DNA of 35,663 bases from the UHGV virus genome UHGV-0076931. One strand, written 5' to 3'. Positions 3,139 through 10,216 of the stretch are shown here, piece after piece. Positions within the stretch are counted from its first letter, which is position 1; the number at the start of each line of letters is the position of its first letter. Made by a program: the position numbers and the translations under genes. The DNA comes from a virus. Under the pieces are notes generated by a model. It saw nothing but the letters and a program-made list of their open reading frames with translations, ran no database searches and had not been told where the DNA came from.

Positions 3139-4248
3139 TCACTCTGTTTCCGCTATCCATTCCGGGATTTTTGCCTCAAGCTCAAGCTGCGTGGTAAAGC
3201 CGCTGTTATCAATGGTGTGCTCGGCTTTTGCAATAATCCAGTCCTGATTATCAATCTCGCTTTTAAATCCTGTTACCGTGCCATGCATTTCGGGGTAGAG
3301 TTCTGCACGTCCACGTGCCAGCGTGATGGAAAATGATGCGGCTCCGCGTTGTAGCTGCTGCCACTTTGCCGCCGCTGCGCGTCTTGCTGCCTGCTCGTTC
3401 TGATAAGTCTTGCGTAACACAAACACATTGCCTTCCGCACCTTCCATATAATCACCTTCACGGCTGCTGCTTTTCTCCTTTTTGGGTTTTGGCGGTTTAC
3501 GGCGTTTTACGCTGACCTTTTTCTTTTTCCCGTAATTAAGATCAAGCCAGTAGGCGCGTACCCCCGTATACGCCTCGCGGTCAGCAATACGGAACTGATG
3601 GCGATCGCCGCTGCTGCGTGTAATGGCGAACGAGGGCAACGGCTGGCCCTGTGCGTTCACGCCACCACCGGGCATGATGAATAACAGATTGCCGCTTTTT
3701 ACCGTGGTGATTGCGCCCAGCATTTCCGCCATGCGCGTAAGGAAGGACATATCGCTTTCTTCGGTCTGGTCGGCGTGGTCGATTTCGATATCCATCAGCA
3801 TTTCGCTGATTTGCGGTTTCAGACCATACCGATGAGCGATGGCGGATACCACACGCTCAACGGTCACATCATGCCAGGACACCTCACGTTTAACGTTAAA
3901 TTCATCCCGAAAATCTGCGCTTCTGGCTGAAACAGTCAGCCTGTCCGGCGGTCCTTCGTGAGCGATTTCATCAACAATGTAAGTGCCTTTTTCTGTCAGC
4001 GGTTCCCCTTTCCAGCCAATGAGAACCGTCAGACGCGCGCCCCGTGGCGGTAGCTGCAACTGGCCATCGGCATCATCCAGCGTGATGGTGAGCTGGTCCG
4101 CCTCAAATCCCCGGTTGTCGGTCAGTGACAGGCTCATCAGGCGTTCTGCCACGCCGGACAGCGTTTTACCCTCGGCGAGAATATCAAAATCCGGCATTTT
4201 CACGGGGTTTGTGCCCTGACTGAGCAATTGCATGGTGGTGTCGGTCAT
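3139..4248 (-). CDS. D: Tail protein D (late control gene D family)
   Basis: Resembles P2 gpD as recalled; start placed at ATG 4248 preceded by GGGAGGGAG; internal basic KKKKVSVKRRKPPKPKK stretch. Confidence 0.8.
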   Translation of the reverse strand: MTDTTMQLLSQGTNPVKMPDFDILAEGKTLSGVAERLMSLSLTDNRGFEADQLTITLDDADGQLQLPPRGARLTVLIGWKGEPLTEKGTYIVDEIAHEGPPDRLTVSARSADFRDEFNVKREVSWHDVTVERVVSAIAHRYGLKPQISEMLMDIEIDHADQTEESDMSFLTRMAEMLGAITTVKSGNLLFIMPGGGVNAQGQPLPSFAITRSSGDRHQFRIADREAYTGVRAYWLDLNYGKKKKVSVKRRKPPKPKKEKSSSREGDYMEGAEGNVFVLRKTYQNEQAARRAAAAKWQQLQRGAASFSITLARGRAELYPEMHGTVTGFKSEIDNQDWIIAKAEHTIDNSGFTTQLELEAKIPEWIAETE

Positions 4249-4304
4249 CTGCTCCCTCCCTGTGTGGCATGGTCGCATGTGCGTGCGGAGGGGGTTACTG
4301 CTTT

Positions 4305-4328
4305 TTGTTGTCGCCGTGGCGGGAGAAC
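4305..4328. promoter_or_regulatory. Candidate late-promoter activator site between divergent D and FI
   Basis: ttgttgt-N12-agaac; the same motif recurs between divergent O and P at 21228-21251. Confidence 0.4.
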
Positions 4329-4405
4329 GGCGCAGGGGTGAGATTACGCGCGTGGTGGGTGATGATTGTTGCCGAATCATTTAACGGATACAAGGGGCTG
4401 AAGCT

Positions 4406-5590
4406 ATGAGTGAAACTCGTTTTCATGGTGCCCGTGTTACGGAAAATACCGACCTGGTAACAGCGATTAACGATGTTGATTCCAGCGTTATCGGTATCGT
4501 GGCAACGGCGGATGATGCGGACGCGAAGCTGTTCCCGCTGAACAAGCCCACACTGCTGACCCGCGTCAATGACGTGCTGGGAAAATGCGGAACAACGGGG
4601 ACGCTTTATCGTGCGCTTAAGGCCATCGCAGACCAGGTGAGCACAAAGGTGATCGTCGTTCGCGTGGCTGAACACAAAGAAGAAGACGAAAAGACGCAGG
4701 ATCAACTGGTTATCGGTGGTTCTGAGGATGACGGCAGCTATACGGGGATGTATGCGCTGCTTGTTGCAGAGCAGGATGAAAGCATCGGATACCGTCCGCG
4801 TATTCTGGCCGCGCCGGAGCTGGACACGGAGGCGGTGACAAAATCCCTGTGCGTGATTGCGGGTAAACTGCGCGCATTTGTGTATGCCTCATGTCACGGC
4901 TGTAACACGATGGCTGAAGCGATTACCTACCGCCAGAAATTCAACGAACGTGAAGTGATGCTCTTATGGCCGGACTTCATCGCCTACAACCCGAAAAGTG
5001 GCGAAAACGAAACGTTCCCCGCGCCTGCTTATGCGTGCGGCCTTCGTGCGTACATTGACCATGAGCAGGGCTGGCACAAATCGCTGTCCAACGTTCCGGT
5101 TAAAAATGTGCTGGGGATGTCGAGGCATGTGTTCTGGTCGTTGCAGGCCGAAGACAGCGATGCCAACAGCCTCAACAACAAAGAAATCACGACCATTATT
5201 CGTCGCAACGGGTTCCGCTTCTGGGGCAACCGCACACCGGAAACGAACGCCTACATTTTTGAGGTGTATACCCGAACCGCACAGGTGCTGGCTGATTCAA
5301 TTGCGGAAGCGCAGTTTGAAACCATCGACAGTCCACTGACGCCTGCGAACGTGAAGGATGTTATCAGTGCCATCAGGGCAAAACTGGATTCACTGGTGAC
5401 TGCCGGGAAACTGATTGGCGCGGAGTGCTGGTATGACGTGGTGGATAACAGCACCACGGATTTACGTCAGGGGCGTGTGCGTATTCGCTACAAATATACG
5501 CCCGTTCCGCCACTGGAAGACATGGAGCTTTACCAGACGTTTACTGATGAATACTTTGAACCCGCATTTGCGGTGCTGGGAGGTGCCTGA
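4406..5590 (+). CDS. FI: Contractile tail sheath protein
   Basis: 394 aa; conserved blocks FPLNKP, LRAF, MLLWPDF, HEQGWHKSLSNV, FRFWGNRT, YTRTAQV as in P2 gpFI. Confidence 0.93.
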   Translation: MSETRFHGARVTENTDLVTAINDVDSSVIGIVATADDADAKLFPLNKPTLLTRVNDVLGKCGTTGTLYRALKAIADQVSTKVIVVRVAEHKEEDEKTQDQLVIGGSEDDGSYTGMYALLVAEQDESIGYRPRILAAPELDTEAVTKSLCVIAGKLRAFVYASCHGCNTMAEAITYRQKFNEREVMLLWPDFIAYNPKSGENETFPAPAYACGLRAYIDHEQGWHKSLSNVPVKNVLGMSRHVFWSLQAEDSDANSLNNKEITTIIRRNGFRFWGNRTPETNAYIFEVYTRTAQVLADSIAEAQFETIDSPLTPANVKDVISAIRAKLDSLVTAGKLIGAECWYDVVDNSTTDLRQGRVRIRYKYTPVPPLEDMELYQTFTDEYFEPAFAVLGGA

Positions 5591-6102
5591 TGGCTGTGCC
5601 AAAACATCTTCGCTTTTTTACGCTGTTTGTGGATGGTGAAAACGAAGTGGGTAAGGTGACGTCCGTCACTTTGCCTAAGCTGACGCGCAAAACCGACAGC
5701 TACCGGGGTGGTGGCATGATGGGGGCGGTAAGTATTGATCTCGGTCTGGACGACTCCGCGCTTGATGCGAGCTTTGTCATGGGGGGCGCAGTTCGTGAGC
5801 TGTTCCTTAAGTATGGCGGCACGATTGACGGCACGCTGCTGCGTTTTGCGGGTGAATACTACACCGATGCAGAAAGCGACCTGTATGAAGTCGAAATGCG
5901 CGGACGTGTGACGGAAATTGATATGGGGGAAGCCAAACAGGGCGAAGCCACATCACACACTTACGCCATTAAAAACACCTACTACAAGCTGAGTGTTAAC
6001 GATCGTCCGTTGTGGGAGATTGACCTGCTGAACTTCATTTACCGGAAGGACGGCAAGGACATTGTGCCCGATCGCATCCGTTCCGCGCTTGGGCTTGGCT
6101 GA
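5590..6102 (+). CDS. FII: Tail tube protein
   Basis: 170 aa immediately after the sheath gene with overlapping stop/start; size and position match P2 gpFII. Confidence 0.88.
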   Translation: MAVPKHLRFFTLFVDGENEVGKVTSVTLPKLTRKTDSYRGGGMMGAVSIDLGLDDSALDASFVMGGAVRELFLKYGGTIDGTLLRFAGEYYTDAESDLYEVEMRGRVTEIDMGEAKQGEATSHTYAIKNTYYKLSVNDRPLWEIDLLNFIYRKDGKDIVPDRIRSALGLG

Positions 6103-6156
6103 TAAGTAATATGCAGGCGGCGCAGTGCGTCGCCTCTGACTGAAAGGAGTTTCCTG

Positions 6157-9480: not shown

Positions 9481-9486
9481 GGAGTC

Positions 9487-9981
9487 ATGGCCATGATGAT
9501 GATCTACGGCATGTTTGTTTTTGAGCTGCGCACGCTGCCGCATCAGCAGTTACAGCAAAACAAAAGCTGGCGGCATGTGAAAAATGAACGCGTTAACCGT
9601 TCAGCAAGCTGGCAGTATATCGGTGCAGGTGATGATCGCATCGTTCTTTCTGGTGTGCTTTATCCTGAAATTACAGGTGGCGAAGTGTCGCTGTCGCTGC
9701 TGACCACGCAGGCGTATACAGGACGACCCTGGCCTTTGATTGATGGCGTCGGGCAGATTTACGGTATGTATGTCCTGACCGGAACGAATACGACCCGTTC
9801 CGAGTTTGATCGCTACGGTAAGGCGAAAAAGATAGAATTTTCACTGACCCTTGAACGCTGTGATGAGGATTTGCGGGAGCGCCTGCAATCCTCATCGTTC
9901 AGCGATATGCTGTCCGGCTTCAAAGATAAGGTGACATCATCCCTTAACAGCGCGGCAAGTTCAGTAAAAGGGTTGTTCTGA
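9487..9981 (+). CDS. U: Tail protein U
   Basis: 164 aa directly after T; size and position match P2 gpU. Confidence 0.8.
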   Translation: MAMMMIYGMFVFELRTLPHQQLQQNKSWRHVKNERVNRSASWQYIGAGDDRIVLSGVLYPEITGGEVSLSLLTTQAYTGRPWPLIDGVGQIYGMYVLTGTNTTRSEFDRYGKAKKIEFSLTLERCDEDLRERLQSSSFSDMLSGFKDKVTSSLNSAASSVKGLF

Positions 9982-9993
9982 TTTAACACAAAA

Positions 9994-10020
9994 ACCGCTA
10001 ATGGTCAGATTAGCGGTTTT
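9994..10020. terminator. Bidirectional intrinsic terminator between convergent U and H
   Basis: Stem accgctaat / attagcggt with 6-nt loop, flanked by an A-run upstream and T-run downstream. Confidence 0.7.
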
Positions 10021-10171
10021 CTTTTTCCTTAGTCTTCTCAATTGTTTCTTCAGTCTGTATATCGCCTACAGGGTGATAACGATAAATCGTCGATATACTG
10101 ATACCGTAAATTATTGCCAGTTGTTTTCTGTCATGACCGTTTTTAATAAGCCTTGCTATTTGAATGTTCAC
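10010..10171 (-). pseudogene. Remnant of a serine DNA invertase (Hin/Gin/Cin/Pin-type), C-terminal HTH only
   Basis: Hand translation ...IARLIKNGHDRKQLAIIYGISISTIYRYHPV... resembles the C-terminal HTH of Hin-family invertases; no room upstream for a catalytic domain (H stop at 10217). Confidence 0.5.
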
Positions 10172-10216
10172 CCAAGGAATGCCTCCCTTAAGAAAGGGGG
10201 CAACCTTACCTACAAA

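Follow-up and report, generated by a model that had tools for sequence, protein, structure and literature searches.

The inverted tail block of this virus, in which FI to U lie on the strand opposite to D, is a real and inherited arrangement; it is the standard layout of a large P2-like branch, and is ordinary. Because it is the normal layout of that branch, it reflects no recent reshuffling of the genes and no fault in the assembly. The window (the whole stretch of 35,663 nucleotides analysed here) is likely an E. coli prophage of the P2 family and of P88-like kind (Xuanwuvirus/Gemsvirus-type); the block was probably flipped once long ago, and D and FI are probably driven together from a shared dyad.

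Gene and strand calls were based on the map of open reading frames, on PHROG and Pfam matches, and on an E. coli record of 100% identity annotated by PGAP, all of which agree. On the minus strand are an ogr-type late activator gene (1551-1811; 86 aa; Pfam Ogr_Delta, E=5e-14; PGAP 'Ogr/Delta-like zinc finger protein'), the baseplate hub or late control gene D (3139-4248; 369 aa; phrog_52, E=1.5e-167; Pfam Phage_GPD; identical PGAP coordinates) and the tail fibre gene H (10217-12814; 865 aa; phrog_7032 over its full length; Pfam Phage_tail_fib). The plus strand carries the tail sheath gene FI (4406-5590; phrog_23, E=2.6e-127; Pfam sheath domains), the tail tube gene FII (5590-6102; Pfam Phage_tube, E=7.5e-47), the tail assembly chaperone gene E (6157-6522) with its second chaperone frame E' (6531-6686), the tape measure gene T (6673-9480, with the start given by PGAP; phrog_28; Pfam PhageMin_Tail) and the tail protein gene U, which ends the flipped block (9487 or 9493 to 9981; Pfam Phage_P2_GpU, E=1.5e-38). 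E/E' (6157-6686) matches phrog_103, and PGAP labels it 'tail protein' and 'GpE family phage tail protein'. By PHROG, Pfam and PGAP, the P2-family contractile-tail module is complete, with homologues of the sheath, tube, E/E', tape measure, gpU and gpD clustered. The D frame is open as far as 4380; its start was placed at the ATG at 4248, which is preceded by a ribosome-binding site, and both the start codon column and this site are conserved throughout the clade. An alternative ogr frame at 1574-1792 was rejected, as its translation is not Ogr-like and the overlapping frame at 1551-1811 is the Ogr_Delta gene. A PIN-domain cargo gene sits between D and ogr; PADLOC returned no match for this gene or for the low-GC genes of the early region.

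The preliminary description had placed D, H and ogr on the minus strand and FI to U on the plus strand, and had contrasted this with P2, where H-G-FI-FII-E-T-U-D-ogr share one strand and D belongs to a single F operon. Both statements stand: the former agrees with the open reading frames, PHROG/Pfam and PGAP, and the latter with the P2 RefSeq annotation. The window and the P2 FETUD operon (pF) share the families of the sheath, tube, E/E', tape measure, U and D proteins and the Ogr family of activators, but the proteins are only 44-48% identical. In P2, all seven genes point the same way in a single operon that ends with D, whereas in the window FI to U are flipped, D forms its own unit, divergent from FI across 4249-4405, and the co-oriented FI-FII-E-T-U-D order of canonical P2 synteny is absent. 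At the other end, U converges with H, as had also been described, across a bidirectional intrinsic terminator (9991-10020, both strands) common to the converging FI-U and O...H units. This hairpin has a 12-bp stem with T-runs on both strands, and folds at -15.7 (plus) and -15.4 (minus) kcal/mol with z of about -4.3.

The same order is found in sequenced phages. The window from 3127 to 10162 is collinear with the viable phage P88 at 97% identity; P88 (Xuanwuvirus) and 500465-2 (Gemsvirus), which match this interval at 95-97% identity, both have ogr and D on the minus strand, FI to U on the plus strand, and the invertase and H on the minus strand, together with the same dyad and both -10-like hexamers described below. 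SEN5, Kp4871-3 and Kp4847-1 have an identical order. P88 and PhiSM are active phages (PMC5285337, PMC6456863). P88 and 500465-2 also differ from the window: those phages have an intact invertase, an invertible two-fibre cassette and G-type chaperones, whereas the window retains the last 47 or so invertase codons and one 865-aa fibre with a foreign C-terminal module, lacks a chaperone gene, and has the PIN-domain gene between D and ogr. Among complete E. coli genomes, the D/FI junction is intact in 1357 of 5426 (about a quarter); these 1357, out of 1380 matching genomes, have the junction in the same state, and the U/invertase side is present in 1368.

A survey of 88 loci, whose genomic share consists of the best 80 of 502 genomic matches and in which rare reversions or independent inversions could be missed, divides sharply by the identity of D. 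Within the best 80 of 502 genomic matches, all 66 surveyed loci that share at least 58% identity with the window in the D protein show the flipped layout, and they span about 20 bacterial genera and five ICTV genera; the 22 surveyed loci with D at most 53% identical, under the same limit on genomic matches, all have the canonical P2 order. The outgroups PHL101, Dobby, vB_VpaM_MAR and Burkholderia KS5, KS14 and KL3 are canonical as well. Escherichia phage 500465-1 (Wadgaonvirus, Fels-2/ssrA-type) likewise places an accessory invertible fibre cassette and invertase between H and the sheath block, but its FI..U..D..ogr genes are co-oriented in the canonical way and its D is 53% identical to that of the window.

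Unbootstrapped neighbour-joining trees of D, FI, FII and U split cleanly in two and require a single Fitch change of arrangement. The window proteins, 97-100% identical to those of P88, group in these trees with the P88-like clade (Xuanwuvirus, Gemsvirus, Senquatrovirus, Reginaelenavirus, Reipivirus and related prophages) and not with the canonical P2-type phages. The window has the traits of this clade: D diverges from FI, and U lies distally and is convergent with the fibre module. No mixed orientation within the clade was seen in these trees or among the surveyed loci from the best 80 of 502 genomic matches. A single ancient flip of FI-FII-E-E'-T-U, between the tail-fibre module and D, probably became fixed throughout the branch and has stayed so ever since. 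Searches of the literature on P88, SEN4/5, Xuanwuvirus and P2 late promoters turned up no text that explicitly describes the flipped block or a promoter for D, though one may still have been published.

Late promoters of the Ogr/Delta type depend for transcription on the activator and on the alpha subunit of RNA polymerase. They carry a TGT-N12-ACA dyad centred some 55 nt before the start, together with a weak -10, and lack a -35 (PMC3931495; for the dyad consensus also PMC5694545). The interval between D and FI contains one such element, GTTGT-N12-AGAAC, at 4307-4328 (centre 4317.5). It belongs to the TGT-N12-ACA class with one mismatch, and is the proposed common activator site for rightward (PF) and leftward (PD) transcription. 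Hexamers flank it on both sides. A predicted PF -10-like hexamer, GATGAT, is located at 4361-4366 on the plus strand, with a predicted start at about 4373-4375; a predicted D promoter hexamer, GACCAT, is located at 4270-4275 on the minus strand, with a putative start at about 4261-4263. The cognate zinc-finger activator is encoded by the phage itself (the Pfam Ogr_Delta gene at 1551-1811, minus strand). The motif GTTGT-N12-AGAAC has exactly two exact matches in the window, both in divergent late intergenic regions; the second (21230-21251) lies between O (start 21159, minus strand) and P (21314, plus strand) and provides an internal comparator. An O start at 21192, which would put the promoter within the gene, was rejected in favour of 21159 on the basis of the conserved N-terminus and ribosome-binding site. 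A scan of the window for perfect TGT-N12-ACA gave six sites, a number that does not exceed chance, and all six lie outside the late intergenic regions; the real dyads have AGA in the right half, and were found only through the clade alignment.

Conservation of the D/FI region concerns both sides of the dyad. Its score is at least 8/10 in 56 of 65 relatives, and Providencia has a symmetric compensatory double change (GTTCT-N12-AGAAC). In the window, the FI-side half is imperfect, with AGA (4324-4326) for ACA, opposite TGT at 4309-4311; the D-side half-site ACAAC is the better conserved. On the FI side, 63 of 65 relatives have a hexamer that starts 43.5 nt away from the centre of the dyad; on the D side, a conserved block begins 48.5 nt from the centre in about 60 of 65, so the D hexamer begins 43.5 nt from it. 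Leader lengths vary across the 65 relatives while the spacing of hexamer and dyad holds on both sides.

This geometry has mapped counterparts in P2. At P2 pF, the dyad lies about 55 nt upstream of the start with a -10-like hexamer 44.5 nt from its centre, much as in the predicted PF of the window. At P2 pO/pP, one annotated activator site (3057-3087) serves the head and packaging operons from mapped starts at 3016 and 3127, which are 55 and 56 nt from its centre and about 111 bp apart; the D/FI region of the window is laid out in the same mirror-symmetric way, its predicted starts being about 112 bp apart, and so is its O/P region. The P2 pair was mapped experimentally, whereas for the D/FI region we infer start sites, Ogr dependence and bidirectionality from conservation and geometry alone.

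The late F operon of P2 may accordingly be pictured as split into two divergent units served by a single dyad-symmetric Ogr-binding site (4307-4328), about 55 nt upstream of both predicted starts. PF would run rightwards from the dyad through FI to U and stop at the terminator (9991-10020), and a new promoter, PD, would run leftwards through D and possibly onward into the PIN-domain cargo gene and ogr. The D/FI region would thereby copy the design of the divergent PO/PP pair of P2. Since D is mirror-symmetric with FI on one Ogr-type dyad that matches the P2 PO/PP site, D probably remains co-activated with FI. The earlier suggestion that D is uncoupled from the F promoter is thus right insofar as D is a separate transcription unit, but probably wrong as to regulation. 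With S and V contiguous and no PV between them, the late genes may run from two bidirectional nodes, O/P and D/FI. Slightly more likely than not, on a broader proposal, the P88-like branch rewired its late transcription by losing PV and splitting the F operon, leaving all late genes to two mirror-symmetric nodes with one Ogr dyad each, centred about 55 nt from either start. In that case PD would add a fifth, so far undescribed kind to the late promoters of the P2 family, one that arose when D came to lie behind the palindromic PF operator.

The layout could also be standard for the lineage while the D promoter acts independently of the Ogr dyad, constitutively or through another factor, leaving D uncoupled from FI. 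On the D side alone, 30-39 nt from the centre of the dyad, there is a strongly conserved CGCGCGCG block, with its counterpart in the window at 4280-4289, which another regulator might use; the D-side hexamers, too, are weak matches to a -10. Such independence appears unlikely, however: the D hexamer keeps exactly the distance of the FI hexamer in about 60 of 65 relatives while the leaders drift, the better-conserved half-site is the one facing D, P2 already serves two divergent late promoters from one site, and D is a structural tail protein needed simultaneously with FI to U.

A rearrangement private to this genome, such as an invertase-mediated or recombinational flip of FI-U in a canonical P2-type prophage, is highly improbable. 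Serine invertases can act on secondary sites, and a remnant of a Gin/Pin-type DNA invertase adjoins the block (10010-10162, minus strand). A truncated invertase at the U/H junction had been noted before, and alignment with the P88 invertase and a PGAP pseudogene call ('incomplete; missing N-terminus') agree. Yet the remnant comprises about 47 codons aligning to residues 149-195 or so of the P88 enzyme; it has the C-terminal HTH without the catalytic domain, and the window locus has no intact serine recombinase. A search across the block for inverted repeats pairing 4249-4405 with 9982-10216 gave only short, low-identity pairs within coding sequence; switching of the block by an invertase was therefore rejected. 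Among flipped loci at which both D and U were located, 54 of 63 have no invertase. With no flanking inverted repeats either, the remnant does not explain the orientation of the block. A private rearrangement is refuted, moreover, by the distribution of the order: P88, 500465-2, SEN5 and the Klebsiella phages have it, as do 1357 E. coli genomes and, within the best 80 of 502 genomic matches, every one of the 66 clade loci, which come from about 20 genera.

The truncated invertase is instead the scar of a separate and more recent event, the exchange of an invertible fibre cassette for a single foreign fibre/spike module. Homology to P88 stops at 10162, and H consists of a P2-type N-terminus fused to a foreign C-terminal receptor-binding module (about 10257-11643), with no G chaperone gene following it. 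This module shares 91% identity with fibre/spike genes of other E. coli prophages, and its protein is 52% identical to the phiSTEC1575-Stx2k tail protein. The replacement together with the truncated invertase was found in only 8 records.

A mis-joined or mis-oriented contig, for which nothing specific speaks beyond both junctions being short intergenic regions, has a negligible probability, as the order is found in inducible phage P88 and other sequenced phage genomes, both junctions recur in more than 1300 independent complete genomes, 8 records from at least six strains contain the exact truncated junction at 99.7-100% identity, and the intergenic architecture is evidently under selection. 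Of the three origins considered in the preliminary description (a real rearrangement, an artefact or a lineage-specific organisation), only the last remains, the order being standard among close relatives.

When genomes are annotated and prophages typed, this gene order should count as a marker of the P88-like Peduoviridae clade and not as a flag for rearrangement or misassembly. The truncated invertase marks the region just downstream of U and the terminator as a hotspot for swaps of tail-fibre modules. In the evolution of late transcription, a palindromic activator site means that one adjacent inversion can yield a new co-regulated unit without the evolution of a new operator. The D/FI region of the inducible phage P88 would be a convenient test system for bidirectional activation by Ogr.

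From its sequence the window is identified as a P2-family prophage, with a gene map that was consistent across the ORF map, PHROG and Pfam searches, and the PGAP annotation of the 100% identical chromosome of E. coli strain ECL27977. The minus strand carries ogr (1551-1811, an Ogr_Delta ORF of 86 aa), a PIN-domain cargo gene (1896-2966), and D (3139-4248); FI (4406-5590), FII (5590-6102), E (6157-6522), E' (6531-6686), T (6673-9480), and U (to 9981) are located on the plus strand. Past U lies a hairpin (9991-10020), a predicted bidirectional terminator with folding energies of -15.7 and -15.4 kcal/mol for its two strands (z ~ -4.3), with an invertase pseudogene (10010-10162) and H (10217-12814) on the minus strand, which also carries I, J, W, V, S and onward up to O, all past H. 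The gene coordinates and strands of the preliminary description held up with three small corrections: the D start at 4380 was moved to 4248, the ORF 1574-1792 taken as ogr was replaced by the overlapping Ogr_Delta ORF, and the hairpin was assigned terminator activity in both directions. The canonical order it assumed agrees with the P2 RefSeq record, in which H, G, FI, FII, E, E', T, U, D, and ogr occupy a single strand and pF is annotated as operon start, 'encodes FI, FII, E, E', T, U, D'.

The reversal of FI to U relative to D and H had been tentatively attributed to a lineage-specific organisation, a rearrangement, or an assembly artefact. Alignment of the D protein gave a survey set of 8 phage loci plus 80 genomic ones, each species being represented by a single genome and the genomic loci being the best-scoring 80 among 502 hits. 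FI to U lie opposite D, with FI adjoining D, in every one of the 66 loci with a D identity to the window of 58% or more; the 22 loci with an identity of 53% or lower are all canonical, P2, Kapieceevirus, and Wadgaonvirus among them. The flipped order occurs in hosts including Escherichia, Salmonella, Citrobacter, Enterobacter, Klebsiella, Kosakonia, Pantoea, Erwinia, Edwardsiella, Serratia, Symbiopectobacterium, Brenneria, Pectobacterium, Xenorhabdus, Photorhabdus, Providencia, Morganella, Yersinia, Hafnia, and an Aeromonas MAG, and in the ICTV genera Xuanwuvirus, Gemsvirus, Senquatrovirus, Reginaelenavirus, and Reipivirus. Trees of D, FI, FII, and U (neighbour-joining, unbootstrapped, from the survey sample) each cleanly separate flipped from canonical members at the cost of one arrangement change, and the more distant Mannheimia PHL101, Pseudomonas Dobby, Vibrio vB_VpaM_MAR, and Burkholderia KS5, KS14, and KL3 are canonical. 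Together, these results indicate that the flipped order is derived, arose once, and has become fixed in one large clade. For the baseplate genes J and I, trees of the same unbootstrapped kind required 3 and 7 changes and gave no clean split, which shows that modules outside the block have been swapped between the two groups. That the layout is standard for the lineage is, in our judgement, nearly certain.

The rearrangement reading, prompted by the departure from P2 synteny, is refuted, as the flipped order is common to P88-type phages and every surveyed locus of the D-protein clade. In megablast against phage genomes, window 3127-10162 matched P88 at 97% identity, collinear and on one strand, and 500465-2, P884B11, Shae_phiSM, 520873, and 503458 at ~95%. 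In their deposited annotations the order is D(-), FI to U(+), invertase(-), invertible fibre cassette, H(-). P88 can be induced, and PhiSM is spontaneously active (PMC5285337, PMC6456863); the flipped layout is thus functional. An assembly artefact is excluded because both junctions recur in more than 1300 complete E. coli genomes: the intact D|FI junction (window 3900-4800) in 1357 of 5426, and the U-side junction up to 10162 in 1368. The flipped block is therefore ordinary for a well-populated phage clade, already sequenced and classified. The literature searched on P88, SEN4/5, PP4/KSP20, PhiSM, and P2-type late promoters mentions neither a flipped block nor a D promoter, although the layout is plain in deposited annotations.

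The invertase is unrelated to the orientation of FI to U. Among 85 loci with both D and U located, it adjoins the fibre module in 9/63 flipped and 2/22 canonical loci, and is co-oriented with D and H every time. Phage 500465-1 is a canonical counterpart (H, G, G', fibre', invertase, FI to U, D, ogr); P88 has an equal arrangement, but with FI to U reversed in place. No inverted repeats pairing the two ends of the block were found.

P88 homology of the window ends at 10162, within the invertase gene, of which the HTH tail alone remains; sequence from 10163 to ~11767 is foreign. At the C-terminus of H, ~460 residues (10217-11767, minus strand) form a foreign receptor-binding module with ~91% DNA identity to fibre/spike genes of other E. 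coli prophages and 52% protein identity to the phiSTEC1575-Stx2k tail protein. This module is also common to lambdoid Stx2k-phage and jumbo-phage tail proteins. The window gene map contains no G-type chaperone gene downstream of H. No more than 8 E. coli records share the exact truncated junction, and two close relatives have other breakpoints just past U (L009 at 9987, L010 at 10038), which marks the remnant as the scar of a tail-fibre module replacement at a hotspot. The L010 prophage (D 96%, H 95% identical to the window prophage) lies in NZ_JBQPOM010000071.1, labelled as the Gram-positive Vagococcus sp.; the label probably reflects contamination or mis-binning.

Other observations concern cargo and the early region. 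The gene between D and ogr is low in GC (~0.33) and encodes a 356-aa PIN_12-domain protein; P88 has no gene at this position and 500465-2 a different one, which indicates a cargo hotspot. The gene could have a toxin or defence role; PADLOC returned no match for it. At the prophage end past ogr (50-1359, minus strand) are a DNA methyltransferase (50-841), a Com-family regulator (786-983), and a Hok/Gef toxin gene (~1219-1359). The early region of this integrated prophage carries a full-length homologue of ParM, the actin-like plasmid segregation protein (26639-27598, minus strand), with a low-GC stretch at ~24100-26300 and small neighbouring ORFs without family matches. A near-palindrome, GTTGTGTTATTCGGGAAATAAC (26317-26338), adjoins this region and, one mismatch apart, looks like the late-promoter dyad. 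The replication protein A homologue (27675-30497, minus strand) has 940 aa, with the Phage_GPA domain spanning residues 179-503 only; P2 gpA is clearly shorter (2286-nt gene).

Alignment of 65 non-identical clade members over the 260 nt preceding FI revealed short conserved islands amid variable DNA: on the D side, the D start codon and RBS, a -10-like element on the D strand, and a CGCGCGCG block; then a dyad, GTTGT-N12-ACAAC, a small cgtG motif, and a -10-like (G/A)AxxAT hexamer before FI. Located 30-39 nt from the dyad centre, the CGCGCGCG block has no FI-side counterpart; it is strongly conserved across the relatives and degenerate in the window (4280-4289). The P2-family Ogr operator is TGT-N12-ACA (PMC3931495, PMC5694545), and the D|FI dyad is identified as this operator by its sequence. 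The dyad scores at least 8/10 in 56/65 sequences, and two Providencia loci with GTTCT-N12-AGAAC keep it through a symmetric double change. The distance between dyad centre and hexamer start is 43.5 nt on the FI side in 63/65 and on the opposite, D side in ~60/65; unlike this near-invariant spacing, leader lengths differ by as much as 13 nt. In the window, the dyad GTTGT cgccgtggcggg AGAAC (4307-4328, centre 4317.5) lies between the hexamers of the predicted FI-side promoter PF (GATGAT, 4361-4366, plus strand) and D-side promoter PD (GACCAT, 4275-4270, minus strand). Calibrated on mapped P2 pF (hexamer 44.5 nt from the dyad centre, start 7-9 nt past the hexamer), transcription would start at ~4374 (+) and ~4262 (-), ~112 bp apart and each ~55 nt from the centre.

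One site between two divergent late promoters is already known from P2, whose RefSeq record annotates a single 'activator binding site; pO, pP promoters' (3057-3087); the mapped starts diverge from 3016 and 3127, and the site centre is 56 and 55 nt away from them. The window contains only two exact GTTGT-N12-A[C/G]AAC dyads, at D|FI and at O|P (21230-21251), and the latter has the same geometry once O begins at the conserved ATG 21159. The S-V gap is only 11 nt (15226-15236), leaving no room for a separate P2-like PV; the genes from O to H would form a single long operon. P2's orf30 insertion and separate PV promoter seem to be missing from the lineage. A search for intrinsic terminators separating D from the PIN-domain gene or ogr gave none, so read-through toward these genes is possible. 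We regard it as somewhat more probable than its opposite that the late genes are driven from two bidirectional nodes, with D physically outside the F operon and still under the operator of FI. The mirror-symmetric D|FI promoter that we infer is testable, and would be an incremental extension of the known P2 design.
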